Source: a virus
IMG/VR virus record: IMGVR_UViG_3300035666_000005
Location: 56,877-120,876 of that record
Reading direction: 5' to 3' (one strand)
Length of the DNA: 64,000 bases
The notes under the pieces were generated by a model. It did not search any database and was not told the origin of the DNA. It saw only the letters and a program-made list of their open reading frames with translations. Shown piece after piece: positions 9,313 to 64,000 of the stretch. The number at the start of each line of letters is the position of its first letter. The first letter of the stretch is position 1. The translations under genes and the position numbers were made by a program.

Positions 9313-12300
9313 TCATCTAGTTCTCGGTGCAACGCGTGGCAATATCCCCTGTCTTTCTGCGGAAGCGACCATTTCTGCAGCGCGACCATATTTCTGATCC
9401 ATTTCGCTTTTGATTTGAGTAATCAGTGGACCGACTCTTGCTTCAATTTCTGAACCGAGTTCTTTTGCGTAATCTTGGGTTTTTCCTCCGGTCTGGGCTT
9501 CGTTTACGGTTAAACCGCCCAAGCTAACAGAAACCGCAGAAAATTCTGGAACAGAATTGGCAAAGTTGGGAATGTACATACGATTAGCCATTGCCATTCT
9601 TTCTTTCGCAATATTATTTTTTTCTTGTGGTGTATTAAAAGTTGCCATTCCTTCGGGATTATTTAATCCCTGGACTTCTGGTTGACGTTTTTGATAAACT
9701 TCGTTTGGAGCAAAGCCAGCATTGACTTCGTCCATAAATGAATTTATTTTAGGCAAAAAGCCTTCTGAGTAATTTTTAATTCTAGCGTTTGCGTTATTTT
9801 TTTCCATTTCGCGCAATACTTCTTGTGCTGGCCGTCCATCAATAAGCCCAGCCCCGCCAGGACCATAAGTGGGCTGCTCAGAATTTAAAGGGGATCCCGT
9901 TTTTGGGTCAAGACCAGCAGCAATCATGGCTCTATCATAGGCGGGATCAGATGGACGATTCGTCCGACCTTCTGCTAAGACTTCTCGCGTTGGGCGACCG
10001 TCAATAAAACCTTGACTACGTTGATCCTTTGGAATTCCTACGATTTCATCGATTACAGATTCGTTTCTAGCTCTTTGATATAAAGCTTCTTGATCTCTTC
10101 CGTAAGCCATCGCTCTATCATAACCCTCATTCGGATCTATTCCCTGTTTAGCCCACTCTGCATAAGCTTGTTTTACAGGATCATTCTTTTCATGCTTTTC
10201 GTAAATTTCTCTCAGTGACTCATATCTGCCTTGTTCATATAAGCGTTTGAATTCTTGTGTTTTCGCCATCAAAGCCCTTTTTTGGTCCATAGATTGGCGG
10301 GTTGGCCTATTATAAAAACCTTCTTGGCCAGAAAGTGCTTGGGTATAAGCTTCTACCAAGCTTTGTAGCATGAATTTGGCATTTGCTTGGGTAGTTCTTT
10401 CTGCGCGGCGAATTTCTGTTGTGGGTTTTATTCCGGCGCGGTCTGTAGATGTAGCGATATTAAATGTTCCGCCAGCCCCAGGTCCGCGCAAACCAAGCCG
10501 TTGTGCATCAACAGTAAACGTACCCGCTCCACCATATTCATCAATTTCATAACGATCACCAGTCATTTCATAACTTCTTGCTAAAGTCTCGCGTCCTCTT
10601 TTAATAACTGCTTCTGTTCTTTTAATAACTGCTTCTGTTCTTGCTCGTTCTTTAGCCCTTTGAGCGGCTAATTTATCTCTTGCCATCATTTGTTTATCGC
10701 TTTGGCGAGATTTGTTCCATTCTTTTTGTCTATAAAATAAAGTACTTAAATTATATAATTCTCTTGGGTTCAAAAAGTCGCTTGCGTTAGCTCCGGTTTT
10801 TCTAAATTCTGAAACTAAAGGTTCAGCAGCCTTATCATAAGATTTTTCTATTTCATTTATTTTTTCAAGAGTTTTGTCACGTTCTTTTATTAAATTATTT
10901 AATTGATCATTATCTTTATATAGTGATGGATCCCATCCAAAATATTCTTTTAATCTACGATCTCTTTCGGGGGAAGTTAAATCTAATTCTGCCAAATTGT
11001 TCCAAGCTTGTTTTGAACGATTTTCGTCCCAGTTAGCTCTTTTTGCCATGTGATTATAAAAGCTCTTTTTTTTCTCTTCCTGAAAAATGTCAACAAGAGT
11101 ATTGAGTTCAGTTTTTGACTTCGTTAAAGGATCTAACTCTTTTTTATATTTTTGATTTATTTCGTTTGCTTGTTTGATAAGACTATAAGGTATTTCTGGC
11201 ATTGGCACAAAACCTTCTGCGAAATTTGGAATATAACCTTCCGCCATGTTTTTGAAAGGATTTTTTATAATTTCCGGCTTTTTCTTTTTCCTGCGGATAT
11301 ATTTTCCGTCTTTATCAAAATAAGGATTTGGTTTAAATTTCGGATTTTTGAGAAGAAAAAGCTCGTTTCGAAGTGCCTGCTTTTTGCCGTAATCTTTATC
11401 TTGATAACCAAAGTCACCAGGTTCTGGCGTGCGAGGAATCTCATATTCAAGCTCAGAGATTCTTTGGTATAGCTCCCACTCTGGAGTATCCAAAGCACTC
11501 ATGATGCTTCCCATCCCACTCGTTATTCTTTGATTCGATGATGACCCAGAAATGCCCGACTTTGGAACAAAACCTTCCGCCATGTTTTTGAAAGGATTTT
11601 TAATTTCCGGCTTTTTCTTTTTCCTGCGGATATATTTTCCGTCTTTATCAAAATAAGGATTTGGTTTAACGCCATCTTTTGTAAGAATTTCTGCTTTTGG
11701 ATTTTGAAGAAGAAAAAGCTCTCTTTCAAGTTGTTCTAATTCGACTCTTTGCAGATATGATACTGGGGGTGTTAATTGTTTAATTTTTGTTTTAACTGAT
11801 AAAATCCTACTTTCTAATTCGTGACGTGGATCGTCAAGATATTTATCAAGTTCTGTCGTATCGAGTTTTGGCAACGATCCTTTTGCCGCGCGTTGCATAT
11901 CACGAGTTAAAAGAGCATCTTCTCCGGTCCCCATGTAATTTTTAATTAATTGTTCTCCTATATTCGCAACAACAGGTGCGCCATTAAAATTGGGTATGAA
12001 TGTGGGACGATCTGATGGGCGTGCGCCACCAACGCCTCTTTTTACGTCGCGCTTTTCTGCGATCATTGCAGGAATGGCTTCTAAAGGAATCGATCCAGAC
12101 GAATATGTTTTCGGAAGTTCTGGCTTTGGTGCAGTTCTATCTATAACGGGTTTTTCAGTTGGCAGGGTTGCGTTAGAAAAAGGATCTTGTAAAAATTTTG
12201 CTATTTTTAAGTCAGCACTATTTTGCGTATTTTGAATAGCCTTTAAAATTTCTTCAAGAGTTTTATTCGCGGCAGAAAATTGCAAAGATATAATTTTATT

Positions 12301-15300
12301 AGTATCCCCCGCAAGAAGCGATAGAGCGCTATCACCACCTTCGCCGAGTAATTTTTGTAATTCTGGCGGGAGTGAAGATTTTGCCTGTTCAATAAGTTTT
12401 TGATTTAATTCTCCAACTTTATTTTCGCCTTCTACTTGTTGTGTCGCAACTGTTTTACTATAACGTTTAATAAGTTCTGCATCAGATAATTGAGCAGCTT
12501 CCGGCTCCCCAATTTGTTCGGCGATTGATCTCCTAAAGCCTTCTAAGATTTCTCTTCCAGCCTCTCCTTCTACTCCGCCAAGTCCACTGATGACATTCGT
12601 TAATTGATTTTCAATATCTAATGCCCTAGCATCACGAATTGCGCTAATAACCGCGCTATTTTGACCTAACTCGGGGCCAAGGTTACGCCCAGTAATTTTA
12701 CTTAATTCGCTAACAACTCTTTGCAAGTTCCTACCAACTTCAATAATGCCTTTTTCTCCAGTTGGTTCCCCTATAATTTTTAAATTTGCAACGGCTTTAT
12801 CAAGACCTTCTGTGATACTGATATCATCATTAATAAAAGCCTGCAAACCACCAAAAGCACTATTAATAGAGGTTATTAGTTCGCGTAAACTTTCTTGAAA
12901 TTTTTGATTGGCAAGAATTGTTTTTTGCTCGATTAAAACTGCTTTATTTTTTACGAGTTCTTGATTAGTTTTATTTATGGCCTCACGAATAGCGTCTAAA
13001 CGTTTTTCACCTTCGGGGTCACCTTCGGGAATTTGTAGTGCTTGTGCAATTTCAGATAATTTAGCTTCTACGTCAAAACCAGTAAAAGTTGTCGGGTCTC
13101 CGATATCCAATAAACTACGAAACTGCTCTATATCAAAACCTTGTTTAACTGCTTCAGCTAAAACTCCTGCGGTTTCTAAATTTGCTTCGGCATTTTTTTG
13201 TGCATTATCGTCTCCGCCGATTGTACTCAAAGCTGCAAAAGATTGTCTTTGTTGTTCAAGAAATGCGCTACCAATTAAACTAATTGTTTCCCCAACAGAA
13301 TCTTTTATCGTATTGGCAAAATCCCCTTCTATTCTAAGAAGCTCTCCTTGTGTTTTACTGTCTGCCCGTCCAGCAGGGGTAGTTATTCCAAAAAGTTCTT
13401 CTTGAACGGCTTTTGTTTCAAATTGCGATACGCCGATGTTTGTTCCAGATTTTCTAATAGATGATTCACCCAAAAGTTGTAAATCAAGGGCAGACTGGCT
13501 TTGTCGCGCTAATTTCGCATAATTAGATTGTACGGTTTGTAAAGTTTTAGTTATTAATGCTATTACTTTATTGTTTTCACCGCTATTTCTCCCCGTCGCC
13601 TCTAAAGACGCTTTTAATTTATTTGCGGGGTCCGCAAGTTCGGCTATTAATTTTAAACCAACGCTAGGATTAAGTTTAAGAACAGCAACAAGATCATTAA
13701 TATTACTTTTACTTAAACCACTAAGAGGGGCTGTTTGAGTTAAAAGGTTTTCAAACTCTTCAAATATTTTATTCGCTTCATCTGTTGCGAAACCGGTAGG
13801 GCCGCCATCTGTTATTAAAGACCTCCGAGATATTTCCGATAATTGATTTATGCTATTTTCATCTAATTGCGTAATATTAATAATATCAGAAAAATTTTCT
13901 CCAATTTTGTCAAATTGTTTTTCAGAAATATTACCAGTAGATCTAGGCAGGGATTCAACTAAACTTGTTACAGCTAAATTTTTTTGCTGCGCTAGTGTAT
14001 TTTCTAAAACAGCATTTGTATTTTCTCCGATTACTTTTTGTAGAGATATAAAATCTTGATTTATTACAGCGGCGCTAGCTCCAGAAACTAATTCCGGAGT
14101 ATCTCTAAATTCTTTTCTAATAAATGAAAGTAAATCGGCTTCTAATTGGCCAGCTCTCTCGCCTTGACCAGCTTCTCTTAATTGTTTAATCTGTTCAAAA
14201 CTAGTTTGAACTTTTTGTCCCGCGTCATTTATCTTTGTAAGATTTTCAGAAGCCTTTTGTGCGGCGGCAGATAATTCTGGAATATCGGTAGACGCTTGTT
14301 TAATAACATCTATTAGCCCAAGCAAAGCTCCAGCGCTACCACCAATTGCCGCGCCAACAAGTGGATTTGGTGCCAGCATTGCCCCAAGACCAGCAAAAGA
14401 TCCCACTTGACCCAGAGCGCTAGCCCCAGCACCTAATGTTCTATCTGCTTTGGTTTCTTTCCCAATGGCATTCGCAATTGTTTCTGCAATAATTGGAGCT
14501 GCGATGGTTAAACCAATACCGCCTGCGCCAATAGCTGCGCCAGCTCTTTGACCACCTGTAGCTCCGTATCTTCCTTCTAACCCTCGAGCTTGGGCCTCTT
14601 CACCTGTTATTTTTCCCATTGCGACGAGTTGAGTATTAGCTGCTTTTTGAGCCTTTGTTAATTCTCCTGTTACCCGACCAGCTTCTTTATTTTTTTGAGT
14701 TAATTCAGTTAAACTTTGTTTATAAGAATCTCCAAAACCTTGAAGGCCAAAACCTAAAAATCCAATTTGAGTTGCAAGAGCCCCGAGTGAAGATCCTAAA
14801 TCTGCTGCTTGGGTATCTTCTGGTGCGAAGTTTGGAACAAAACCGCGAGCGAGACCTTGGGAGGCCGCCGAATTTTGAATCGCGCGCTTTAGACCTTCTG
14901 GATGATCTTTTTTAATCATCGCATTAAAATTAGACGATTGTCCGGGCTGGCGAACATATTGCATTCCTTTGTATTCGTCAAGCACAGCCCCTTTTCCGGC
15001 TTTTTTCTCTGTCTGTATAGCTCTTTCTCTAGCTTCTGTAATTGTTTTAGCAAAATTTGGAATAAAGCCAGCAGCTTTTCCTACAATACCAAATCTATCC
15101 CTTAAAGCTTGTCTTATCGCAACACTTCCAGTAACCCCCTCTTTTCTTAATTGGTCTACTGCGGCAGATCTTTCTTTAAGATAAGCGGCTCCAGCTTTAC
15201 CACTAGTTTTTTGAACAGTTGCTCCAGGTTTAGTTTCATTAAGAAGCTTTTGTAAAACTTCATTCGTTAATTCTGGAGATCTTTTTGCATCATATATCCC

Positions 15301-18300
15301 AGGAGCATTATTAAATATTGATCTTAGTCTTGGACTGATCTTACGAAAATCAATTCCGGCGTTCTGTTTTCTAACTTGATTCTGTAACAATGTTGTAATA
15401 CCGCCTTCAAAAGCAACACCTACAGCGCCTTTTGCGGCACCAGCGTTTGGAAGTTCATCGGCAGATTTTAAGAAATTAAAACCACCCAATGACTGACCAA
15501 ATTGATTAGCTTGTTTTACTAAGAAATCATCTATCTCTGTATCTAAATCTGGTAGTTGTGATTTAAGTTTGTCTTTATTTATTCCTGCTACTGGAATATT
15601 ACCTGTATATTGTTGTTTTAAATATGTTGCAGTGGCTGGCGCTAATTCATATGGTCCAGAAAGCCCAGGATAAATAAGAGATAAAACTTTTTTACCAAGT
15701 TTATTTGGAATTTTATCTAAATTTCCTAATTGAATTGGAGGGTTTTTTGTTTGGGCAAAATTTGGGATAAAGCCAGAAGCTAAATTTTTAAATGGAGCAT
15801 AAGATAAAATAATATTTTTTAATTTTAATTCATCAATAGTTCTATTTTTATATTTACCTCCAGCAGTTTGACCTTCATATTGTAAAGCTTTTGCGATTAA
15901 TATATTATCTGAAACTTTTCTTTGTGTTATTTTAGATTCTACTAAATAACTACCCCCCTGTTTTTTGACTAAAAAGTCCGCCCCAAATAAATCACCTTGC
16001 TTTTCTGCTACGCGACCTTTAGAACCAAAACGTCGCTGGGAATCTATTTCCCCCATTGCCCCTTTAATATTTGTATTATTAGAACGATCTTTTTTGGGGT
16101 CTAATAATGTTTGTGGTTTAATTTTATCTGTAAATTTAGAAATTGGTATTCCGCGATATTGCGAATTTTGGAAAATTGAGGCAACAGAAGAAGGATTTGA
16201 AGAAGCTTGATTTCTTATATTTTTAATAATATTATCTGCTTCTTTAGTATATTCTTTTACATTTTTAGGTAATGGTAATCTTTTTATGTTTGGCCTAAAA
16301 TATTCATCTTTTATTCCTTTATCTTTCGAATCTCCAACATTATATAAGTTTTGCAATAACCCTGCGGATCTTGACGCTTGTTTTTGTAAATTAGCAATTG
16401 TATCAACCGCGAAATTTGGAATAAAACCTTTTGCTTTATTTCTATCACTCTTATCTAAAATACTTCCACTTTCGCCATTAGCGATCATCTTTGTCGCTTC
16501 TTTAATTCCGTTTCCATATTTTGGAATTACTGCTGTTTCGCCTGTATTGGCAAAATTTCTTATTTGTAATTCTTGATTATTTGCTTCAAAAGATTTGCCC
16601 CCAATTTTTCCTACACCACGAACAGCCTTAACATTAGATGTAGCTCCTAATACTTTCGCTTGAAACTCTTCAGCAAAATTAGGAATATACCCACCAGCTT
16701 TTCCAGGTTTTGAAGTTTTTGCAACGGGAACTCCACCAGCAACTGTAACACTACCAGACCGAATAAATTGTGACGCAATTTTTGCAGAAATAGCTTCTTG
16801 TTTTTGTAATTCTAAAGTTTGTGCTCTTAAACTATTTAATAAAATTTCAGCGCCTTTATTTAAACCAGCGCTTCCTTGCTGCATTAATTTAAATAGTTCT
16901 GGATTTTTTTGTAAAATTTGTGCTACACTTTGCTGTAATTGCTGTTGTTGTTTAGAAGCTGTATTTAAATTTAAAAGTTCTTTTAAACTTCCAGTCGCAA
17001 ATTTTGCCAAATCTGAAAAAAGTTTAATAAAAATTCCGCCAATTAGTGCAAGTCCTGGGCCAGCAATTACTTGACCTAATCCATCTAAAATACCTTTTCC
17101 TAATGTGGCTCCCACTCCTTGCCCATCAGATTCATTAATACCACCAAGAATCTCATTCGTATTACCTACAACCCTATCAAAAGCTGGGCCAAATAATCTC
17201 TCACCAATTCCAGCCCCAGCCTGTTTAGCATTTTCTCTTAAAGCGTTTAATTGGGCAGCGTAAGTTTTATTTAATTCTTCATTACGACGAATAGCTTGGT
17301 CAGTAGTAGAGGCAGCGACCTGTAAAGCGTTATTGTATATAGAATATTCTTTACCTAAGTCTGCCAATGCAGATTTTAAAATGTTAATTTGGAATACGCC
17401 GCCAACTTTTTCTGCGACCTCTGCTTGTTGTAACGTTCCAAGTTGATCGTAAACTTTAGCAAGATCTGTTAATAAATTAATAGTACTTTTAATTTCTCCA
17501 GAAGAATCTCTTGTATTAACTCCCAAGCCTTCTAGTAAATCAACAACTTTAGTTCTTTGAAGTCTTGTGAAAATAGTTTTAAAGGAGTTACCGATTACCG
17601 CGCCACCACGAGCAGTTGTTTGTTGAGCCGAAGTAACAATGGCTATGAGTTCATTTAACGAAACGCCTGATTGAGCCGCACTACTACCAACACGACTAAT
17701 TGCTTCTGCAAGATCTGCAGAACTTACCGCAAAAGCTGCATCAACATTAGCAAACTTATTAACAATTTCTGTCGCCGTTACGGCTTGGCTAGCAAAAGAG
17801 TTTACTGACGCGGTAAGAGCTTCAACACTTTTAGCGGCATCCAATCCACTCAAACGAGAAAGAATTAAGGCCTCGTTAGTTCTTTTTAATGTTTCTGCGA
17901 CACCCAAACCTTGACGAGAAAATTCTGTAGCGGCTTTGGCAACTTCTGCGAAACTTTGCCCAGTATTTTTAGCGATACTAAATAAATTAGAACCAAATTT
18001 ATTTAATTCAGAAGAAGAGACATTTAAAATAACATTAATATCTGCTAAAGCTTTTTGGGTTTCTATGACAGAGCTGGCTAAAGCAGTAAAAGCTCTTTGT
18101 ACTCCAAAAATAATTCCAGCACTAGCACCGAAAGCGATAACACGCGCATTAGAAGCATCTAACGATTTAGTAAATTCATTTACTTTACCAGTAATCCTTC
18201 CAAGAGGCTGGTCGCCCCTTGTCTTTAAATTAATGTTGTAAGAACGACTAACAAGCTTTTGAATGTCTTTTTCAGCCTGTCTTGTATTTGCGCCTACATC

Positions 18301-18318
18301 AATATTAATAGCAGCCAT
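9313..18318 (-). CDS. Tail tape measure protein (3001 aa) with inserted cargo modules
   Basis: N-terminal TP901-type TMP domain (FSRQGL...FAVSSADLAEA...GGAVIGNSFKTIFTRL), Ala/Gly-rich hydrophobic stretches, canonical position after tail tube and chaperones. Confidence 0.92.
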   Translation of the reverse strand: MAAINIDVGANTRQAEKDIQKLVSRSYNINLKTRGDQPLGRITGKVNEFTKSLDASNARVIAFGASAGIIFGVQRAFTALASSVIETQKALADINVILNVSSSELNKFGSNLFSIAKNTGQSFAEVAKAATEFSRQGLGVAETLKRTNEALILSRLSGLDAAKSVEALTASVNSFASQAVTATEIVNKFANVDAAFAVSSADLAEAISRVGSSAAQSGVSLNELIAIVTSAQQTTARGGAVIGNSFKTIFTRLQRTKVVDLLEGLGVNTRDSSGEIKSTINLLTDLAKVYDQLGTLQQAEVAEKVGGVFQINILKSALADLGKEYSIYNNALQVAASTTDQAIRRNEELNKTYAAQLNALRENAKQAGAGIGERLFGPAFDRVVGNTNEILGGINESDGQGVGATLGKGILDGLGQVIAGPGLALIGGIFIKLFSDLAKFATGSLKELLNLNTASKQQQQLQQSVAQILQKNPELFKLMQQGSAGLNKGAEILLNSLRAQTLELQKQEAISAKIASQFIRSGSVTVAGGVPVAKTSKPGKAGGYIPNFAEEFQAKVLGATSNVKAVRGVGKIGGKSFEANNQELQIRNFANTGETAVIPKYGNGIKEATKMIANGESGSILDKSDRNKAKGFIPNFAVDTIANLQKQASRSAGLLQNLYNVGDSKDKGIKDEYFRPNIKRLPLPKNVKEYTKEADNIIKNIRNQASSNPSSVASIFQNSQYRGIPISKFTDKIKPQTLLDPKKDRSNNTNIKGAMGEIDSQRRFGSKGRVAEKQGDLFGADFLVKKQGGSYLVESKITQRKVSDNILIAKALQYEGQTAGGKYKNRTIDELKLKNIILSYAPFKNLASGFIPNFAQTKNPPIQLGNLDKIPNKLGKKVLSLIYPGLSGPYELAPATATYLKQQYTGNIPVAGINKDKLKSQLPDLDTEIDDFLVKQANQFGQSLGGFNFLKSADELPNAGAAKGAVGVAFEGGITTLLQNQVRKQNAGIDFRKISPRLRSIFNNAPGIYDAKRSPELTNEVLQKLLNETKPGATVQKTSGKAGAAYLKERSAAVDQLRKEGVTGSVAIRQALRDRFGIVGKAAGFIPNFAKTITEARERAIQTEKKAGKGAVLDEYKGMQYVRQPGQSSNFNAMIKKDHPEGLKRAIQNSAASQGLARGFVPNFAPEDTQAADLGSSLGALATQIGFLGFGLQGFGDSYKQSLTELTQKNKEAGRVTGELTKAQKAANTQLVAMGKITGEEAQARGLEGRYGATGGQRAGAAIGAGGIGLTIAAPIIAETIANAIGKETKADRTLGAGASALGQVGSFAGLGAMLAPNPLVGAAIGGSAGALLGLIDVIKQASTDIPELSAAAQKASENLTKINDAGQKVQTSFEQIKQLREAGQGERAGQLEADLLSFIRKEFRDTPELVSGASAAVINQDFISLQKVIGENTNAVLENTLAQQKNLAVTSLVESLPRSTGNISEKQFDKIGENFSDIINITQLDENSINQLSEISRRSLITDGGPTGFATDEANKIFEEFENLLTQTAPLSGLSKSNINDLVAVLKLNPSVGLKLIAELADPANKLKASLEATGRNSGENNKVIALITKTLQTVQSNYAKLARQSQSALDLQLLGESSIRKSGTNIGVSQFETKAVQEELFGITTPAGRADSKTQGELLRIEGDFANTIKDSVGETISLIGSAFLEQQRQSFAALSTIGGDDNAQKNAEANLETAGVLAEAVKQGFDIEQFRSLLDIGDPTTFTGFDVEAKLSEIAQALQIPEGDPEGEKRLDAIREAINKTNQELVKNKAVLIEQKTILANQKFQESLRELITSINSAFGGLQAFINDDISITEGLDKAVANLKIIGEPTGEKGIIEVGRNLQRVVSELSKITGRNLGPELGQNSAVISAIRDARALDIENQLTNVISGLGGVEGEAGREILEGFRRSIAEQIGEPEAAQLSDAELIKRYSKTVATQQVEGENKVGELNQKLIEQAKSSLPPELQKLLGEGGDSALSLLAGDTNKIISLQFSAANKTLEEILKAIQNTQNSADLKIAKFLQDPFSNATLPTEKPVIDRTAPKPELPKTYSSGSIPLEAIPAMIAEKRDVKRGVGGARPSDRPTFIPNFNGAPVVANIGEQLIKNYMGTGEDALLTRDMQRAAKGSLPKLDTTELDKYLDDPRHELESRILSVKTKIKQLTPPVSYLQRVELEQLERELFLLQNPKAEILTKDGVKPNPYFDKDGKYIRRKKKKPEIKNPFKNMAEGFVPKSGISGSSSNQRITSGMGSIMSALDTPEWELYQRISELEYEIPRTPEPGDFGYQDKDYGKKQALRNELFLLKNPKFKPNPYFDKDGKYIRRKKKKPEIIKNPFKNMAEGYIPNFAEGFVPMPEIPYSLIKQANEINQKYKKELDPLTKSKTELNTLVDIFQEEKKKSFYNHMAKRANWDENRSKQAWNNLAELDLTSPERDRRLKEYFGWDPSLYKDNDQLNNLIKERDKTLEKINEIEKSYDKAAEPLVSEFRKTGANASDFLNPRELYNLSTLFYRQKEWNKSRQSDKQMMARDKLAAQRAKERARTEAVIKRTEAVIKRGRETLARSYEMTGDRYEIDEYGGAGTFTVDAQRLGLRGPGAGGTFNIATSTDRAGIKPTTEIRRAERTTQANAKFMLQSLVEAYTQALSGQEGFYNRPTRQSMDQKRALMAKTQEFKRLYEQGRYESLREIYEKHEKNDPVKQAYAEWAKQGIDPNEGYDRAMAYGRDQEALYQRARNESVIDEIVGIPKDQRSQGFIDGRPTREVLAEGRTNRPSDPAYDRAMIAAGLDPKTGSPLNSEQPTYGPGGAGLIDGRPAQEVLREMEKNNANARIKNYSEGFLPKINSFMDEVNAGFAPNEVYQKRQPEVQGLNNPEGMATFNTPQEKNNIAKERMAMANRMYIPNFANSVPEFSAVSVSLGGLTVNEAQTGGKTQDYAKELGSEIEARVGPLITQIKSEMDQKYGRAAEMVASAERQGILPRVAPRTR
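11235..11669. repeat. Near-identical ~100-bp direct repeat inside the tape measure gene (copies ~11235-11336 and ~11571-11669)
   Basis: Both copies encode KPNPYFDKDGKYIRRKKKKPEI(I)KNPFKNMAEG; they differ by one inserted codon. Confidence 0.9.
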
Positions 18319-57887: not shown

Positions 57888-58451
57888 ATGGATATTAAAA
57901 ATGATTTAAAATTTGAGAGTGAATATTGGGGTGATTGTACGAATACTTTTGATGAAGACCAAAAACACTATGTATATGCAAAGTATATGGGTTTACAACA
58001 AGAACATTTTAGTTTTAATATTTTTGGTAAATCAGTATTAGATATTGGCGGTGGTCCAACTTCAATGCTTCTTAAAACTAGAAACTTAAAAGAGGGTCTA
58101 GTATGTGATCCATTAAATTATCCACATTGGACAACATTAAGATATTTAGAAAAAAATATTAATGTAAAAGTAATTCGTGGAGAAGATGTCGTAGAAGAAG
58201 GGTGGGACGAAGTTTGGATTTATAATTGTTTACAGCATACAGACGATCCAGAAAAAATTATCCATAACGCATTAAAAGCCGCCAAAGTCCTTAGAATCTT
58301 CGAATGGGTAGACGTTCCTCCACACGAAGGTCATCCGCAAATGATTACTAAAGAATTTCTAGACAAGGCAATTGGTAAAGAAGGAAATACCGTCCAGCTT
58401 GCTGAAAATGGCTGCTTTGGTAAAGCTTATTTTAATATTAAGTTTATCTAG
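57888..58451 (+). CDS. Class I SAM-dependent methyltransferase
   Basis: VLDIGGGP and NCLQH motifs. Confidence 0.8.
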   Translation: MDIKNDLKFESEYWGDCTNTFDEDQKHYVYAKYMGLQQEHFSFNIFGKSVLDIGGGPTSMLLKTRNLKEGLVCDPLNYPHWTTLRYLEKNINVKVIRGEDVVEEGWDEVWIYNCLQHTDDPEKIIHNALKAAKVLRIFEWVDVPPHEGHPQMITKEFLDKAIGKEGNTVQLAENGCFGKAYFNIKFI

Positions 58452-60009
58452 TTTCGCGCCACTGTAAACTAGCAAAAGTATCACTTGCATTAGTGCCAAT
58501 TCCAGATCCAATTATAACAAAAACATTACTATTCGTACTATCGATATTTTGACTAATATATCCTCTTTTTGCGCTTGATAAAGCTGCTATTTGAGATTGT
58601 GCGCTAAATTTTCCAGCACCCTGACCGCCAGCAATGCAATATCCTGCGTCTACTAGCATTCCACTTGTAAAATTAACGCTTGTTGCACTAATATTATATT
58701 GAACAACGCTTTCATCATTTGCACTCACCCAAGAACCGCCAACTATCTGCCCCGTGCTTGGAATTCTCCAAAGCTCATAAGTTATTGCATCTGTTAAAGT
58801 ATAAATATTGGCCATGTTTGCTCTGACAACACTACGGTTTGGTTTTCCGTAATATCCAGTTTTTAATGCTATCGCAACTAAAGGAAGTTGACTGGTTGTA
58901 GTTACAGATCTTGCCATTGTATTTCTTGCTGAAAAATCTACACCTGCTTCATTGTAGCCACCCTCACTAATAACCGTTGCACAAATTTGATCCATCGTAT
59001 CTGTACCAACTGCGCTGCTATAATTTCTAATTTCACACCGGACTGGAAGATTTGGATTACTCCAATAAACGGCGGGTTTATTATTACTATTATAGAATTC
59101 GTGAGCAATCACGCTTTCGCCATTATGAACAAACCCAGCGCGTACTCTTCCAACCCCAAGCCATTGAAAATCTGCTGTAAATAATTGAGTTTTAGTAGGG
59201 TCTAAATTAAAACTCGACGCACCACTTCCATTGCATTTATCAATGTTCCAATTATTTTGTGTTATTCTTTCTTCCGATACAAATCCAGAAACATCACCTC
59301 TTAAAACAAGTGATAAAGTCCCATCGCCGCTCTGTTCAAAAAAGATTCCATTACGGTCATCAAAAAGACCAATTCTTTTATTTGTGCCATTACGATATCC
59401 TGTAAAATTAAAACTTTGGAAAGTTAATTCACTTTTACCTGGCATGTAGTGATGATACATGCGGCTTTGGTGGATGGTAAAATCATTTGCGCCAGTCCCA
59501 ACTTGCAATATTGCTTTTGCTTGATTAACATTGAATGATACAGAAGCATTCGCCCCACTAGTTTTAGTTAATAGTTCTGTTTCTTCTCCATAAACATGGG
59601 AATAGTCAGCGAGGGTAAATGGGTTAGATATTCTTTGGCGACCAAATGCATCTATTTGCGCTGATTGACTTGAAAAATTAGTTACATTAACATTAACTGG
59701 ATTGGTTACAGATACGTTACCCGTAACGTTTTGAACTGTTGGAAAATTCGCAACAGTTACGTTGCCCGTAACGTTACCCGTAACGTTTTGAACTGTTGGA
59801 AAATTCGCAACAGTTACGTTGCCCGTAACGTTACCCGTAACGTTTTGAACTGTTGGAAAATTCGCAACAGTGACGTTGCCTGTAACGTTTTGAACAGCTG
59901 GGAAATTGTTTACTAAAACTCCATCAACAACCGAAACTTGCACAGGTGTATTTTGGCCTTCTTGTTCGGCTTTATGTATTGTTTTGATCACTGTTGTACT
60001 ATTACACAT
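58444..60009 (-). CDS. Putative virion structural protein with NVT-rich repeat stalk
   Basis: DAFGRQRISNPFTL and DFQWLGVGRVR lectin-like phage domain; likely start 60009. Confidence 0.65.
   Translation of the reverse strand: MCNSTTVIKTIHKAEQEGQNTPVQVSVVDGVLVNNFPAVQNVTGNVTVANFPTVQNVTGNVTGNVTVANFPTVQNVTGNVTGNVTVANFPTVQNVTGNVSVTNPVNVNVTNFSSQSAQIDAFGRQRISNPFTLADYSHVYGEETELLTKTSGANASVSFNVNQAKAILQVGTGANDFTIHQSRMYHHYMPGKSELTFQSFNFTGYRNGTNKRIGLFDDRNGIFFEQSGDGTLSLVLRGDVSGFVSEERITQNNWNIDKCNGSGASSFNLDPTKTQLFTADFQWLGVGRVRAGFVHNGESVIAHEFYNSNNKPAVYWSNPNLPVRCEIRNYSSAVGTDTMDQICATVISEGGYNEAGVDFSARNTMARSVTTTSQLPLVAIALKTGYYGKPNRSVVRANMANIYTLTDAITYELWRIPSTGQIVGGSWVSANDESVVQYNISATSVNFTSGMLVDAGYCIAGGQGAGKFSAQSQIAALSSAKRGYISQNIDSTNSNVFVIIGSGIGTNASDTFASLQWRETR
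59714..59908. repeat. 57-bp (19-aa) tandem repeat VANFPTVQNVTGNVTGNVT, ~3.4 copies
   Basis: TTGAACTGTTGG recurs at 59731, 59788 and 59845. Confidence 0.92.
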
Positions 60010-60048
60010 TTTTTTTATTCTTTTTTTAAATATTAATATAATGTTTAT

Positions 60049-60207
60049 ATGAAACAGTGTCAAATGCACATATCCCCAGCGCCCGAATGTCTTGTGCCAT
60101 GCCCAGAAGAAGCTACCGAAATACTAACATTAGGTAATCATACAGACATGTTACTTTGTAAAGAACACTACAAGTCTTTTAATAATCTTCATAAACAAGA
60201 AGATTAA
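60049..60207 (+). CDS. Small Cys/His zinc-finger-like protein (52 aa)
   Basis: MKQCQMH...C...C...LCKEH; TATAAT at 60037-42, 6 nt before the ATG. Confidence 0.55.
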   Translation: MKQCQMHISPAPECLVPCPEEATEILTLGNHTDMLLCKEHYKSFNNLHKQED

Positions 60208-60535
60208 ATTAAAATCTAGAAAAATAAAAACCCCGCCGAATTTTTAGATTTGATTATTATTATTTATTATCTTTTACTCTTAAAGTTTTAGAAAAGGGTA
60301 GGGGGTGGCGTACATATATAAATACAGAGAAACCTATACATTACTATAGGAATATGTATAGAAACTATATATAAGAATAAGAGTAATGGGTTAAATTAAA
60401 TTAATTAAAATAAAAGTCCAGGAGATTGAAATTTCACCCCCCCGGCCCTAAAAAATAAAACGCCTGTTCGAATTTTTTCAAAAATGGGAGGGGGTTATCA
60501 CCTCAAAAAAAATTTAAAAAAATGCAAAAAATCGC

Positions 60536-60563
60536 TTGCTTTTCTGCCGTCCCGTGCTATTCT
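60536..60563 (+). promoter_or_regulatory. Sigma70-type early promoter (leaderless)
   Basis: TTGCTT-N16-(TGc)TATTCT with upstream A-tracts; ATG 6 nt downstream. Confidence 0.75.
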
Positions 60564-60569
60564 TTAACC

Positions 60570-60752
60570 ATGAAGAAGAAATACTACACCAGCACAGAGA
60601 TCATCGAATACGCCGAACAGGTCGGCGCGGTCTGCACCTTCGCCTCGCTCAGTCTGCGAGTGTTCAAAGGATGGACAGCGAAAGGCTCTTACGAGGTCAA
60701 ATTCCATCGCGTTGAGCCTTGCGTGTGGATGAAAAAAATCGTAAGAAAATAA
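60570..60752 (+). CDS. Small early protein (60 aa)
   Basis: MKKKYYTSTE...; start set by the promoter. Confidence 0.7.
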   Translation: MKKKYYTSTEIIEYAEQVGAVCTFASLSLRVFKGWTAKGSYEVKFHRVEPCVWMKKIVRK

Positions 60753-60761
60753 AAAAATCCC

Positions 60762-60789
60762 TTGACTCTCACCGCATCTCTGATACTCT
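60762..60789 (+). promoter_or_regulatory. Sigma70-type early promoter (leaderless)
   Basis: TTGACT-N16-(TGa)TACTCT; ATG 6 nt downstream. Confidence 0.75.
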
Positions 60790-60795
60790 AAAAGC

Positions 60796-60975
60796 ATGAA
60801 AGAAAAAACACCACAAAAAGGCCAGCTCTGGGTGAGCGGCAACACAGTCTACCGCGTCATTCGTAACGAGGGCGACAAGACTCACGCTCATAATCATGGT
60901 AAGATGGGCCTGTTCTACACACGCAATCTGAAGATTGCGACCCCTTCCCAAGTCGCAGAATACTTGGGAAAATAG
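60796..60975 (+). CDS. Small early protein (59 aa)
   Basis: MKEKTPQKGQLWVSGNTVYRV...; translated by hand, below the ORF-track cutoff. Confidence 0.7.
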   Translation: MKEKTPQKGQLWVSGNTVYRVIRNEGDKTHAHNHGKMGLFYTRNLKIATPSQVAEYLGK

Positions 60976-61011
60976 TTTGACAATCACCACAAAACCTAAC
61001 AGAATAACAAC

Positions 61012-61200
61012 ATGACAAAAAAACAATTCACCGCCATCGCTCACATCTTGGGAAAACGCTTGGCCGAAAAAGTCGAAGCACCCATCGCAGAATACGAAGT
61101 CATCGAAGCTATCGCGTCTGACTTTGTCGAATACTTCAAAACTCAAAATCCTTTGTTTAAGGAAGAACTCTTTTTGGAAGCCTTCTATACCAGAAAATAA
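61012..61200 (+). CDS. Small early protein (62 aa)
   Basis: MTKKQFTAIA...NPLFKEELFLEA; upstream TTGACA-N17-CAGAAT-N6-ATG. Confidence 0.75.
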   Translation: MTKKQFTAIAHILGKRLAEKVEAPIAEYEVIEAIASDFVEYFKTQNPLFKEELFLEAFYTRK

Positions 61201-61204
61201 AACT

Positions 61205-61294
61205 ATGTCAATCTGGGTTCCACTCTTTTACCTGTGCATCTTTCCTTCTGCTTGTGCGATCCTCATCCTCTGGGCTGATTCCAGACAAAAATAA
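61205..61294 (+). CDS. 29-aa membrane peptide
   Basis: MSIWVPLFYLCIFPSACAILILWADSRQK; fills the gap between neighbouring ORFs exactly. Confidence 0.5.
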   Translation: MSIWVPLFYLCIFPSACAILILWADSRQK

Positions 61295-61298
61295 TCAC

Positions 61299-61478
61299 AT
61301 GAAAAAATACATCACATTCGACAAGATTGCCTACGCAATGTCCCTCTCCACATTCATCTTCATCGCGGTAACGCTTTGTGCTGCTTGCATTGACTTGCAA
61401 CACCGAACCAGCAAAAACCAAAAGCAAATGCAGGAAGAAGTCCGCGCAATGTTTGCCCACATCGAGAAACCTCTATGA
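61299..61478 (+). CDS. Small membrane protein
   Basis: One hydrophobic helix; likely start 61299. Confidence 0.6.
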   Translation: MKKYITFDKIAYAMSLSTFIFIAVTLCAACIDLQHRTSKNQKQMQEEVRAMFAHIEKPL

Positions 61479-61675
61479 TCACACCCAACATCCAAAAAGC
61501 TCTTGAGTCAAACGGAGTCCGTTTCTTTGCAAAAGACTTCCTCATGGAAGGTATGCGGAAAGACTGCGTTGACGCCGTGCATGATGCAAAACTCGTTTAT
61601 GACTTACTGCGCGAACGCATGGAAGTCATTCTCTCACTCACTCCAACTTATCCAGAAACAGAAACAAATGAGTAA
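61475..61675 (+). CDS. Small early protein (66 aa)
   Basis: ATGA-coupled to the previous gene; RKDCVDAVHDA motif. Confidence 0.65.
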   Translation: MITPNIQKALESNGVRFFAKDFLMEGMRKDCVDAVHDAKLVYDLLRERMEVILSLTPTYPETETNE

Positions 61676-61856
61676 AGACCAAGTCAAAGCCGTGTGCGAT
61701 TACTCGCATGATGTCATAAAAAAAATCAGAGCAATGTTTGGCATAAAGAAAAAAGTGCCGTCACTTCTTTGTCATAGTCTCGCGCACCTGAACACCGCGA
61801 CATGGCTCGAGCGCGCCGTATGCAACGGCACAATCATGGACTACAAGCCGCGATAA
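61668..61856 (+). CDS. Small early protein (62 aa)
   Basis: MSKDQVKAV...; overlaps the previous stop. Confidence 0.6.
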   Translation: MSKDQVKAVCDYSHDVIKKIRAMFGIKKKVPSLLCHSLAHLNTATWLERAVCNGTIMDYKPR

Positions 61857-61857
61857 C

Positions 61858-62045
61858 GTAAAGCGCTAATAATCAAGCACTTACGGCGGCGCGCCCCGCC
61901 GCGCGACCTAAGTCCTTGATATTCAACGACTTACACAAACACACATTCACGAAGCATGCCAACATGCGTGTCAAGCACAAAAAATATTTTTTTTAATCGT
62001 AAAAAAATCCCTTGCTTTTTCCATGATCTGTGCTACTCTGTATGT
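61858..62045 (+). repeat. 188-bp intergenic element, copy 1 (palindrome - GC hairpin - palindrome - TGCCAA/TGTCAA box - A/T tracts - promoter)
   Basis: Colinear with 63122..63309; landmarks at identical offsets. Confidence 0.92.
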
Positions 62046-62399
62046 ATGAAAGATAAAGAAAACACCACGTTCAACGTCAACGGAACCCTCTGCACGCTCG
62101 TCGTCTCGGAAGACTTCGATGGAGATTGCACTAAACTCTGGCACGAACTCGTCAGCGTCGAGACTGGCAAGACCATCCACACTCTCGGCTGGTCGCCTTA
62201 CTCTTGCCCTTCTGATGAAGAAGTGCAACAGATCATCGACCTCGGTTTGCCCGATGGTTTGCGCTGGGCTAACTTCGATCCCTACTCTGGTTTCAACTTC
62301 GACAGCGAAACGCTGGCGAAATACCTCGCTGGCTACGAAGGTGTCAATGGTGGAAAAATGGAATTGACCTTCCGCAAGCGTTCCGCCATGGCCGCATAA
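62046..62399 (+). CDS. Early protein (117 aa)
   Basis: MKDKENTTF...; ATG 6 nt after the -10 box TACTCT (62034-39). Confidence 0.75.
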   Translation: MKDKENTTFNVNGTLCTLVVSEDFDGDCTKLWHELVSVETGKTIHTLGWSPYSCPSDEEVQQIIDLGLPDGLRWANFDPYSGFNFDSETLAKYLAGYEGVNGGKMELTFRKRSAMAA

Positions 62400-62442
62400 A
62401 AAATCTCTTGCCATTAACCTCAACATCCCATATCCTAACAAT

Positions 62443-62733
62443 ATGAACAGCATCCACGACGACTACAACACGCAAACGCAATCCGACGAATACGCGACCG
62501 AGCACGAGGAAGTGCGCGGCACGTTCGCGGCTGAACCCGCCAACGAGGACAACCTCACACCCGCGCAGGAGTTTGACATCCTGTTCGGTTACGCCGAGGA
62601 GCGTCACCGCAACGATCCGTGCGCGCGTCCCGCGCCGGAACCCTACGATGGGTTCGAGGGTCAATGGCCTGGGGATGGGTCTGGCTTCGACGACCTCGCG
62701 GACTTGGGCGAACAGGAAGGTTGGGACAATTAA
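62443..62733 (+). CDS. Highly acidic early protein (96 aa)
   Basis: 25 D/E versus 4 R and 0 K; promoter TTGCCA-N17-TATCCT-N6-ATG. Confidence 0.75.
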   Translation: MNSIHDDYNTQTQSDEYATEHEEVRGTFAAEPANEDNLTPAQEFDILFGYAEERHRNDPCARPAPEPYDGFEGQWPGDGSGFDDLADLGEQEGWDN

Positions 62734-62737
62734 AATT

Positions 62738-62968
62738 ATGACAAACACAGACGGCATCATCAAGTCACTCGAAACGCTCATCAAGCATGAGAAAGTTATC
62801 CAAGCGCAAGAGTGCGACATCATCCAACTCAAAAACCTTTTAGCGCAAGCCTTGCACACGATCACCGCACACGAGCAAAAACTTAACTTCCTGTGTGGCG
62901 TTTCGACTACGCTTGCGGTAGAATTGGGCGCAGTGAAAAATCAGCAATTCTCGCAAGGAGTCAACTAA
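62738..62968 (+). CDS. Small coiled-coil protein
   Basis: MTNTDGIIKSLE...; likely start 62738. Confidence 0.65.
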   Translation: MTNTDGIIKSLETLIKHEKVIQAQECDIIQLKNLLAQALHTITAHEQKLNFLCGVSTTLAVELGAVKNQQFSQGVN

Positions 62969-62969
62969 C

Positions 62970-63122
62970 ATGAGCAGAATAATTATGACAATCGACACGC
63001 GCCCACTCGCGCGCGCGATTGAGCGAAGCGTTCGCAAGACAACTTGCAAGCCTTCATTCGCTATGCGTGTCAAGAAAAAATTCGCGCGCAAGGCAAAGTT
63101 TTTTCGCGGTTGGTCTGACTAG
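62970..63122 (+). CDS. Small basic protein (50 aa)
   Basis: AAGGAG SD upstream; MSRIIMTIDTRPLARAIERSVRKTTCKPSFAMRVKKKFARKAKFFRGWSD. Confidence 0.6.
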   Translation: MSRIIMTIDTRPLARAIERSVRKTTCKPSFAMRVKKKFARKAKFFRGWSD

Positions 63123-63309
63123 TAAAGCGTTGAATATCAACGACTTACGGCGGCGCGCCCCGCCGCGCAGCGTAACTCATTGCAAATCAAGCACTTACAG
63201 AATATGCTGTTCAGATGCCGTGCCAAGTGTCTTGTCAAGCAGAAAAAAAATATTTTTTTAATCGCAAAAAAATCATTGCATTTTTGCGCGGCTGTGCTAT
63301 TCTTTAAGC
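63122..63309 (+). repeat. 188-bp intergenic element, copy 2
   Basis: Same architecture as 61858..62045 with an identical 20-bp GGCGGCGCGCCCCGCCGCGC core. Confidence 0.92.
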
Positions 63310-63465
63310 ATGACAGAGAAAGAAAAACAAATCCAAGCCCTCGAGGAAAAACTCGAACAAATCGCAAACGACTTGATTGATCCCATGCTGGACGATCAAA
63401 CGACCGTTTTACTTCATGCAATGAGAAAAGTGCGCGAAAAAATAAACGCTCTCGTCGCGGAATAA
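63310..63465 (+). CDS. Small coiled-coil protein (51 aa)
   Basis: MTEKEKQIQALEEKLEQIA...; ATG 6 nt after TATTCT (63298-303). Confidence 0.7.
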   Translation: MTEKEKQIQALEEKLEQIANDLIDPMLDDQTTVLLHAMRKVREKINALVAE

Positions 63466-63503
63466 TCCTTGCAACCGAACGCAAAATCACAGAAAATAAA
63501 ATT

Positions 63504-63746
63504 ATGAAAATCACCAAGACTGACCTCTACGACACCCTCATCCAAGCTCGCGTTGCCTTGTCGAAAGACATCCGCGAAACCTTGCGGGGTCGCCACCTCT
63601 CCTACGTTCAAGACCTCTCGCGGAAATCCATCCGCGAAAAAATCGCGGCCTATCGGTTGCTCTCTAACCTCTCGGAAATCAACGCGGAAACCTACACGCA
63701 CAGCAAGCGTGACCTCGCTCGCGTAAAAAAAGCTCTTGCCAAGTAA
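63504..63746 (+). CDS. Small early protein (80 aa)
   Basis: ORF-track ORF with TTGCAA-N17-GAAAAT-N6-ATG upstream. Confidence 0.7.
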   Translation: MKITKTDLYDTLIQARVALSKDIRETLRGRHLSYVQDLSRKSIREKIAAYRLLSNLSEINAETYTHSKRDLARVKKALAK

Positions 63747-63771
63747 CGCAACCTCTGACAAAATCACCACC

Positions 63772-64000
63772 ATGACACTACTAAGCACCAACAACACCAA
63801 AATCAAAAAAGGCGAAAAGCTCGGCTGGCGCACTTACGGCCTTTCACTCTCACCCGCTGGCAAAAGTGGCAAACAATTCTGTCCGCATCGCTCGACTGGT
63901 TGCGAGTTTGCTTGCTTGGATGAAAGCGGCATGGGAATCTTTGCCAACGTGCAAGCGGCTCGCCTTGCAAAGTCTCGTTTCTTCATCGACAATCGCAACG
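63772..64000 (+). CDS. Phage gp88-like Cys-rich protein (partial)
   Basis: MTLLSTNNTKIKKG...LSLSPAGKSGKQFCPHRSTGCEFACLDESGMG...VQAAR; CP-x5-C-x3-CL pattern recalled from the GP88 family. Confidence 0.7.
   Translation, partial: MTLLSTNNTKIKKGEKLGWRTYGLSLSPAGKSGKQFCPHRSTGCEFACLDESGMGIFANVQAARLAKSRFFIDNRN

Follow-up and report, generated by a model that had tools for sequence, protein, structure and literature searches.

Paired palindromes resembling mirrored IHF half-sites are candidate cassette boundaries in large uncultured lake phages

Introduction

A stretch of 64,000 nucleotides (nt) from a virus in the IMG/VR collection (record IMGVR_UViG_3300035666_000005, positions 56,877 to 120,876; this whole stretch is called the window) carries close to its right end four 27-bp palindromes that contain matches to the DNA consensus of the bending protein IHF. 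An earlier note on this DNA described them as dyads of IHF consensus sites on which a host IHF/HU-like protein would act. The locus raises the question which kind of molecule reads these palindromes and what they do between the small genes that surround them. The explanation that we consider best, at a probability of roughly 0.5, is that the palindromes would be sites of a homodimeric DNA-bending protein of the HU/IHF family and would mark the boundaries between gene cassettes.

Results

Two copies of one module near the end of the contig

The window is the last 64 kb of one virus contig of 120,876 bases, which is ~80% complete according to CheckV. The four palindromes are present as claimed (P1, 61858-61884; P2, 61908-61934; P3, 63122-63148; P4, 63172-63198), and the distance between the members of a pair, given before as 50 bp, is exactly 50 bp from centre to centre in both pairs. 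They are the outer parts of two copies of a single 81-nt repeat (family D2, copies 79% identical) with the layout of a 27-bp palindrome, a 23-bp core rich in guanine and cytosine (GC) and a second 27-bp palindrome. The palindrome arms are imperfect in the window, with the deviations in the left arms. Perfect matches to WATCAANNNNTTR sit at the four places where the earlier note had put them.

60500 to 64000, plus strand: higher-GC block of small open reading frames (ORFs), which holds the modules; defined by composition profiles, runs off the contig end
61858 to 61938, plus strand: module copy 1, consisting of P1, a core (61885-61907), P2 and 4 flanking nt; repeat D2, nhmmer 79.0 bits, row 1 of the alignment
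63122 to 63202, plus strand: module copy 2, consisting of P3, a core (63149-63171), P4 and 4 flanking nt; repeat D2, nhmmer 84.3 bits
61871 to 61883, plus strand: perfect WATCAANNNNTTR match, right half of P1
61909 to 61921, minus strand: perfect WATCAANNNNTTR match, left half of P2
63135 to 63147, plus strand: perfect WATCAANNNNTTR match, right half of P3
63185 to 63197, plus strand: perfect WATCAANNNNTTR match, right half of P4

When the consensus was counted against a null, as the earlier note had proposed, the whole window gave 21 matches versus 10.17 ± 3.28 in shuffled sequence, and 0 of 100 shuffles reached 21. This excess is a local one: in the 3.5-kb higher-GC block there are 4 matches where 0.13 ± 0.35 are expected (0 of 400 first-order Markov simulations gave that many), and the remaining 117,376 bases of the contig hold 26 versus 22.40 ± 3.19 (6 of 40 simulations reach 26). 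The half-site TCAANNACTTAC occurs four times in the 120,876-base contig, each time within one of the four palindromes. The observation of the palindromes and of the module is confirmed to lie far beyond chance.

The module recurs in related phages

Searching IMG/VR for exact matches to a 26-nt stretch of the window gave 17 loci on 11 contigs that measure 36-178 kb; of the five related contigs examined, three are rated 100% complete. A profile search with nhmmer, run on the window and 13 of 23 loci after exclusion of those that overlapped or nearly duplicated others, gave 152 hits, which fall at 80 places and represent 67 distinct sequences. Two of these were discarded, a copy truncated at the end of its locus and a hit of 16.9 bits; the remaining 65 distinct copies align across 81 columns without any gap. 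Twelve columns are invariant (A3, T10, A18, T24, T25, A53, A54, T59, T60, A68, T74 and T75). When alignment columns 20/21 are compared with columns 57/58, CG in one pair of columns is accompanied by GC in the other, and complementary dinucleotides are almost never found. Module copy 2 of the window is identical to one copy in the relative locus L014. All copies are confined to a block of small genes with 45-50% GC, in genomes that otherwise have ~31% GC, and their number and orientation in four relatives are as follows.

L018 and L019 (G003): 14 module copies, 12 of the 13 in L018 co-oriented with the genes
L020 (G001): 11 module copies, 11 of 11 co-oriented with the genes
L021 (G002): 11 module copies, 11 of 11 co-oriented with the genes
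L023 (G005): 7 module copies, 6 of 7 co-oriented with the genes

The start of the module tends to coincide with the end of a gene: an ORF of at least 40 codons ends between -6 and +5 nt from the module start in 34 of the 65 copies, and in 16 of those 34 the stop codon is the TAA inside the first GTAA of the module. Two copies start in the 3' end of a tRNA gene or immediately downstream of it. In the window the genes that end at the modules are:

61668 to 61856, plus strand: small ORF without a Pfam family, stop codon 1 nt before module copy 1
62970 to 63122, plus strand: small ORF of 50 amino acids (aa), whose stop codon shares the first base of module copy 2

The palindrome reproduces the IHF consensus in mirrored form

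In the 65 copies the right half-site of the phage palindrome reads W14 A15 T16 C17 A18 A/G19 n n A22 C23 T24 T25 R26 C27, which is WATCARNNNNTTR plus three additional conserved bases, and the left half mirrors it via column 14. The 27-bp palindrome can be written as WATCAR-N4-TTR mirrored at its first base (YAA-N4-TTGAT-W-ATCAR-N4-TTR), and 24 of its 27 positions are constrained. WATCARNNNNTTR is the consensus given for IHF (PMC8421141). The claim that the palindromes are dyads of this consensus holds well beyond the window, as the half-site profile reproduces WATCARNNNNTTR both in the 65 phage copies and in 153 chromosomal copies of the bacterial assembly G006 described below.

The geometry of IHF-bound DNA agrees with this assignment. 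IHF makes two DNA kinks 9 bp apart, with WATCAR between the kinks, and the mutated thymine of TTR lies 6 bp from the nearest kink (PMC5829579; bioRxiv 382655). From this geometry we infer that the pseudo-dyad of IHF lies at W or one base 5' of W, and the axis of the palindrome lies at W, within 1 bp of that position. Judged by its motif, the palindrome is an IHF half-site whose consensus appears to be given to both halves of a symmetric dimer. A full-text search with the arm sequences and the palindrome core returned nothing relevant in print among its matches, which were primers (one for ICEclc) and unrelated sequences, and a keyword search on palindromic IHF sites returned general HU/IHF papers only. 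Resemblances to FNR, CIRCE, Fur-box and MotA-box sites were considered and rejected on spacing or on the orientation of the arms.

The module looks like a double-stranded DNA site

Pairing of the arms was tested in the 65-copy alignment against column shuffles, on both strands and with a model of three hairpins and a model of one long hairpin. On the plus strand 73.2% of the cells are paired in the three-hairpin model versus 74.0 ± 0.5% after shuffling (487 of 500 shuffles pair at least as well), and 73.6% versus 75.7 ± 0.5% in the long-hairpin model, where all 500 shuffles were higher. The corresponding values for the minus strand are 74.5% versus 75.6% and 75.6% versus 77.4%. RNAalifold predicted 0 pairs on the module alignment. 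Rfam recognized no family in window positions 59500-64000 at E values up to 1, and in L018, L064, L036 and L034 it returned tRNAs and chance-level hits only. An intrinsic terminator was considered and rejected, since no terminator-like site and no U-tract was found at the modules. Single module sequences do fold (-27.1 and -23.8 kcal/mol on the plus strand, -37.9 and -34.0 kcal/mol on the minus strand, z down to -4.1). Pairing is, however, not maintained beyond what the conserved palindromic sequence itself brings, which points to a module that is a sequence-specific double-stranded DNA site. The absence of covariation in the putative hairpins favours a protein that reads double-stranded DNA, and the palindromes are almost certainly protein sites.

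The palindrome is also found in bacterial chromosomes

When 185,579 species (GTDB), each represented by one genome, were scanned for the 20-base palindrome GTAAGTNNTTGANNNTCAANNACTTAC, 37 loci were identified, whereas ~0.5 would be expected by chance according to our own estimate. The loci are distributed over Fibrobacter (9), Bacteroidota, Verrucomicrobiota, Planctomycetota, Alpha-, Beta- and Gammaproteobacteria, a bacterium of the Candidate Phyla Radiation, Treponema and others. Several short contigs of metagenome-assembled genomes (MAGs) carry the palindrome-GC-palindrome layout and are probably phage DNA. The remaining bacterial loci are single intergenic palindromes, and no common neighbouring gene was found at the 36 bacterial palindrome loci. 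The palindrome is not private to the phage; it also occurs in the chromosomes of many phyla. Counts in individual genomes and in samples of genomes, with those of the control motif, were:

Microscillaceae assembly G006, full palindrome with at most 3 mismatches: 1138 copies (reversed control, 1)
Microscillaceae assembly G006, core TAAN4TTGATWATCAAN4TTA with at most 1 mismatch: 4720 copies (reversed control, 2)
Fibrobacter genome, full palindrome with at most 3 mismatches: 12 copies (reversed control, 0)
Pedosphaera genome, full palindrome with at most 3 mismatches: 12 copies (reversed control, 0)
120 other Bacteroidota genomes, core with at most 1 mismatch: 34 genomes with a match, 71 matches versus 13 for the control
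120 Pseudomonadota genomes, core with at most 1 mismatch: 8 genomes with a match, 9 matches versus 4 for the control

The palindrome is more enriched in the Bacteroidota sample than in the Pseudomonadota sample. The density of the core in G006 is ~1 per 1.4 kb, and each of the 120 other genomes of the phylum has 0-10 copies. The G006 profile was made from 153 copies in 273,824 bases, on contigs chosen as already known to hold matches. Column 14 is A in 75 and T in 76 of these copies, followed by A15 (132), T16 (148), C17 (152), A18 (153) and A (125) or G (28) at column 19; further out, four weakly constrained positions precede T24 and T25 (153 each) and A (145) or G (7) at column 26. The arms show no covariation in the 153 copies either (z -1.3 to +1.7). 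Of these copies 144 are intergenic, in tandem, divergent and convergent contexts, with no favoured distance to gene ends and no conserved flanks around the 27-bp unit.

Some chromosomal loci have features of their own. The Pedosphaera genome (G008) has pairs 76 bp apart (870558/870634, 1341829/1341905, 3268079/3268155 and 441724/441800), which recalls the pairing in the phages. A perfect palindrome lies at 1501-1527 of a Comamonas MAG contig (L038), ~360 nt downstream of a cas1 gene. In L039 and L040 the palindrome directly follows the 3' end of a tRNA gene, and in one of them a phage-type integrase gene comes next. In the Fibrobacter genome (G007) a relative of the palindrome with 3 mismatches (L088, 1434-1460) lies 20 nt upstream of a gene (1480-1770) that scores best against the models for IHF-alpha and IHF-beta. 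This single and degenerate case hints at possible autoregulation of an IHF-like gene.

Host lineage and candidate reader protein

Motifs resembling a Shine-Dalgarno (SD) sequence are found upstream of 11 of 106 phage ORFs and at 13 of 106 control positions, and 68 of the 106 ORFs have A at position -3. This fits the translation-signal pattern described for Bacteroidetes (PMC6847099). The missing SD sequence together with the A at -3 softly suggests a Bacteroidota-like host. Bacteroidetes have a clade of IHF-alpha-like proteins and no IHF-beta, according to a 2025 preprint (10.1101/2024.06.24.600358), in which homodimerisation and sequence reading by the IHF-alpha-like protein are not established. 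A homodimer that reads sequence would need just such a mirrored IHF consensus, which is enriched in Bacteroidota and their probable phages.

The proposal of a host IHF/HU-like reader is partly supported, by the dyad motif and the protein-type double-stranded site. A classical heterodimeric IHF of the E. coli type is unlikely, given the symmetric sites and the probably Bacteroidota-like host. The classical protein is not a probable reader, and the palindromes are probably read by a homodimeric HU/IHF-family protein of a non-proteobacterial host. The further suggestions that the sites help DNA entry, titrate IHF or affect CRISPR or sigma-54 functions received no support in this analysis.

Promoter-like repeats downstream of the modules

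Four copies of a second repeat (family D1) are present in the higher-GC block. This repeat consists of an A/T-rich tract, TTGCnn, a 16-nt spacer and a TG-preceded TAYTCT, with exactly 6 nt to an ATG, and its copies may act as promoters. All four scored under the threshold of the promoter scan. The distance from the right palindrome to the -35-like hexamer of the next promoter repeat is 77 nt for both module copies in the window.

61981 to 62057, plus strand: promoter cassette copy 3 (D1), with an A/T-rich tract, TTGCTT (62012-17), 16-nt spacer, TACTCT (62034-39) and ATG at 62046
63245 to 63321, plus strand: promoter cassette copy 4 (D1), with an A/T-rich tract, TTGCAT (63276-81), 16-nt spacer, TATTCT (63298-303) and ATG at 63310
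61957 to 61962, plus strand: TGCCAA box seen in the sequence, starting 23 nt past the end of P2
63221 to 63226, plus strand: TGCCAA box seen in the sequence, starting 23 nt past the end of P4; its minus strand is a -35-like TTGGCA

Promoter-like sites at 60541-60572, 60762-60798, 62012-62048, 63276-63312 and 62408-62445 each end 6 nt before an ATG and lack an SD sequence. With this 6-nt distance and no SD sequence, the early mRNAs would be leaderless or nearly so. The TGCCAA box is present at the identical 23-nt offset in 33 of the 65 module copies. Its minus strand can be read as TGGCAY-N6-TGC, which we take to resemble a sigma-54 -24/-12 site pointing into the module; this pattern is found in 13 of 65 copies only, and a sigma-54 promoter was dropped as a general feature.

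Cassette order varies and homology ends in or near the modules

The order of the cassettes differs between relatives. Relative to the window, L006 has the order B-C-A-D, and L021 has C and D separated by part of cassette A. Homology to relatives ends at 61867/61873 (inside P1), 63119/63122 (at the start of P3) and 63189 (inside P4), and further ends fall in the promoter repeats at 63249 and 60732. On contigs from lake metagenomes the loose ends cluster in modules. Two joints between promoter copies on lake contigs (60496 to 61980 and 60500 to 61994) are weak, with flanks of 24-27 letters. Of the recombination idea in the earlier note, homology-driven shuffling of cassettes is what remains, with breaks in or beside modules; recombination is supported in that form only.

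The phage and its higher-GC block

The contig belongs to a tailed phage that encodes a tape-measure protein of 3001 aa, a large terminase (TerL), a DnaE-like polymerase, a DnaB-like helicase, a primase, a ribonucleotide reductase, a thymidylate synthase, a UvsX-like recombinase and a sigma factor. The tape-measure ORF (9313-18318 of the window, minus strand) matches the family across its first few hundred residues, and its length implies an unusually long tail. Beside the block, at 58444-60009 on the minus strand, lies a gene for a virion structural protein (phrog_1645) with an N-terminal run of NVTGNVTVANFPTVQ-like repeats, whose best matches are proteins of cyanophages and of Puniceispirillum phage at no more than 41% identity. 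Protein searches gave only distant cultured relatives, with at most 41% identity to cyanophage for the structural protein and 22-29% for TerL and the DnaE-like polymerase, and a blastn search of the higher-GC block against the phage collection gave no match.

Composition profiles show ~31% GC for the genome and 45-55% for the final 3.5 kb (window positions 60500-64000). The jump from ~30% to 45-55% lies at 60450-60600, and an equivalent jump (to ~48%) is present in every related contig. As all relatives show it, the break is a true feature of the phage group and not a chimera. In the genomes of complete relatives the block measures ~15-17 kb. The genes of the block are presumed to be early or host-takeover genes. 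A single Pfam family, GP88, scores above its curated cut-off among the block ORFs, in the last ORF at the contig end. The 3.5-kb block was present (at least half of its sampled words) in 23 metagenome runs of lake water, three of which may be the source and 20 of which come from other studies.

The higher-GC block of the complete relative L018 encodes a GHKL-type ATPase of 748 aa (13265-15511), a DUF932 protein (9903-10682) and a weak Ogg-HhH-like protein (8538-9263). A DUF932 gene is also found ~450 nt downstream of a module on a contig of a Flavobacteriaceae MAG (L055). Six tRNA genes lie within the higher-GC block of relatives (L018, 7108-7261, 8348-8418, 11545-11617 and 15782-15993).

Discussion

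Proposed function of the module

The data are best explained as follows. The module would separate small, presumably early, gene cassettes in uncultured lake phages of ~120-180 kb. Each palindrome would be read as double-stranded DNA by a host-supplied dimeric bending protein of the HU/IHF family, most likely a homodimer such as the IHF-alpha-like protein of Bacteroidota, in which both halves of the dimer would meet a consensus half-site. Two sharp bends 50 bp apart would then flank the stiff GC-rich core. By folding the DNA where the 3' end of one transcription unit lies, ahead of the promoter that follows, they would create a protein-DNA knot, which would serve both as a boundary or insulator and as upstream promoter architecture. 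Repeated 11-14 times per genome, the module would also offer a patch of homology for the exchange of cassettes between phages. From these sequence comparisons we infer which protein is involved, its bending of the DNA, the role as a boundary, the host and the early expression. A role as boundary or insulator at the end of each unit would fit the constant position of the module at stop codons better than a rigid promoter geometry.

Several observations weigh against this explanation. The likeness to an IHF site is a resemblance of motif. A perfect consensus match is kept by the left palindrome in 45, by the right in 36, by both in 27 and by neither in 11 of the 65 copies, and positions that are free in the IHF consensus are conserved (A22 in 59/65, C23 in 57/65, C27 in 63/65 and G1 in 50/65). 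Columns 20 and 58, in the inner half-sites, are unpaired in 59 of 65 copies, so that pairing is far below chance there, and none of the models considered here explains this. No HU/IHF-family gene (PF00216 or PF18291) was found in this phage or in five relatives, and the reader would therefore have to be supplied by the host. In the Microscillaceae assembly G006 the only PF00216 hit is weak and lies in a SPOR protein with two HU domains, and no HU-HIG hit was found in this assembly, which is fragmented so that absence is not established. The promoter-like sites fit sigma-70-type spacing as well as the spacing of the type known from Flavobacterium promoters, which is why the host assignment is soft. 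Modules lie ~5, 17, 77 or ~100 nt from the promoter, depending on the copy, a variation that makes one rigid promoter geometry unlikely. Finally, a core like that of the palindrome is used by other dimeric regulators, and a search with TTGATTATCAA led to papers on the streptococcal repressor FabT.

Alternative explanations

The last point leads to the reading in which the palindromes are operators for a dimeric regulator of another fold (MarR-, Xre- or winged-helix-type, from host or phage), which would shut off or insulate early units by roadblock or looping and whose sites would resemble those of IHF by coincidence. Dyad symmetry, 24 constrained positions of 27 without covariation, the conservation past the IHF consensus at A22, C23 and C27 and the FabT match all agree with such an operator, as does the location between transcription units, which is that of the stoperators in mycobacteriophage L5. 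Coincidence would, however, have to account for a profile that follows WATCARNNNNTTR position by position, including its degenerate classes, and a specific regulator would not usually have its site in many phyla and in thousands of intergenic copies in a single genome. A DNA-binding regulator encoded in the block was also considered and rejected, as no such Pfam domain is present in 14 window ORFs (13 in or beside the block and one structural gene beside it) or in the 36 ORFs of a relative's block. We regard this reading as unlikely, though it deserves to be taken seriously.

Sites for a dedicated recombinase, or mobile elements of the attC, REP or MITE type, would account for the arrays and for the burst in one chromosome. 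The variable cassette order with breakpoints in or beside modules fits such elements, and so do the 4720 core copies in G006 against 0-10 in 120 other genomes of the phylum and the two chromosomal copies between a tRNA 3' end and downstream genes, one of which is a phage-type integrase gene. In the blocks scanned, however, no integrase or transposase domain was found, and breakpoints also fall in the promoter repeats, as plain homologous recombination would produce them. REP and attC elements need hairpins, for which covariation is lacking here, and in G006 the sequences flanking the 27-bp unit are not conserved. We consider this explanation improbable.

The classical heterodimeric IHF of a proteobacterial host could bind the palindrome in either orientation and bend the DNA, and each of the four window palindromes indeed has a perfect consensus match; single palindromes also occur in genomes of Pantoea, Brucellaceae and Comamonas, one of them just downstream of cas1. 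Against this, in sites of the classical protein one side carries the consensus and the other an A-tract, which makes them asymmetric (PMC8421141). The palindrome is barely above the control in the Pseudomonadota genomes (9 versus 4), the missing SD sequence and the bias for A at -3 do not suggest a proteobacterial host, and 11 of the 65 copies have no perfect match, which leaves this explanation with very little probability.

Equally improbable are hairpins of RNA or single-stranded DNA serving each cassette as terminator, RNase processing site or mRNA 3'-end stabiliser in the manner of PeSL or REP elements: the module does start at stop codons (34/65) or after tRNA genes and precedes the next promoter, its single sequences fold well, and the GC core of other lineages differs in sequence while staying GC-rich and self-complementary, but covariation is absent on either strand, pairing is at or below the level of shuffled alignments, mismatches are kept at fixed positions, U-tracts and terminator-like hits are missing, and one arm sequence is kept across phyla, which a mere stem would not need.

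Relation to known systems

The PeSL (promoter-early stem-loop) elements of T4-type phages (Arbiol et al. 2010, PMC2839356) are, like the present repeats, small repeated regulatory cassettes in plastic regions among non-essential small genes. They combine a strong sigma-70-like promoter with an upstream inverted repeat, as does the present arrangement with its putative promoter, and recombination between their copies shuffles gene modules. The phage modules also flank small ORFs that mostly lack a family, and the order of the cassettes is shuffled with breaks in or beside the repeats. The stem-loop of PeSL is an effective RNA terminator (PMC2839356), whereas the phage module has neither covariation nor a U-tract. 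It differs further in having two sequence-conserved 27-bp palindromes with a GC core at a fixed 50-bp spacing and in that the palindrome is found in chromosomes as well.

The sites of IHF in E. coli and its phages (PMC8421141; PMC5829579; bioRxiv 382655) share with the palindrome the conserved and degenerate positions, the distance between WATCAR and TTR and the position of the axis within 1 bp, and WATCARNNNNTTR is matched in all four window palindromes. Classical sites are asymmetric and bound by the alpha/beta heterodimer, while the module sites are symmetric and paired, have extra conserved bases and carry a mirrored consensus in place of the A-tract. In addition, the host lineage of the module is probably one without IHF-beta.

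In enterobacteria, the RIP and RIB elements combine a REP with an IHF site. REP and BIME sequences, too, are short extragenic palindromes that reach hundreds to thousands of copies and frequently lie at gene 3' ends, but they form GC-rich hairpins, with GTAG or CGTC as the head, and their sequence is species-specific (PMC3733652). Here the palindrome itself is IHF-like, lacks hairpin covariation both in the phages and in the 153 G006 copies, and is found across phyla and shared with phages. Compensatory changes expected of a REP/RAYT system were not found in these alignments, and the head is RTAA and not GTAG or CGTC.

The stoperators of mycobacteriophage L5 are asymmetric 13-mers that are read by the phage repressor and occur in many intergenic copies, and TF1 of Bacillus phage SPO1 is a phage-encoded bender of the HU family that acts near early promoters. 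Both systems share with the module the presence of many copies of one protein site in intergenic phage DNA. They differ from it in that stoperators are asymmetric and in that TF1 is encoded by the phage, while no HU-family gene was found in the phages studied here.

Implications

A wider version of the preferred explanation holds that the 27-bp palindrome could be the cognate site of an IHF-alpha-like homodimer of Bacteroidota and allied phyla, that paired sites around a GC clamp could serve these phages as portable insulators, and that in at least one Bacteroidota genome the site has multiplied to ~4,700 copies. We put this forward tentatively and consider it possible more than probable. If true, it would be the first evidence of sequence specificity for the orphan IHF paralogue of Bacteroidota, and the precise 27-bp candidate site would make the question of IHF-alpha-like specificity directly testable. 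The ~4,700 intergenic copies would imply either a genome-wide architectural role or a new route by which a protein-binding site can spread, and a regulatory site of phages would belong to a motif class that is shared with chromosomes from several phyla and has risen to thousands of copies in one genome. For the phages, it would extend the PeSL idea beyond T4-type phages and RNA stem-loops. It would also show in what form early genes are packaged in large uncultured lake phages, with a boundary module, a promoter and ORFs whose ATG lies 6 nt past a -10-like hexamer, so that each early or anti-defence gene cassette would be an autonomous and exchangeable unit.

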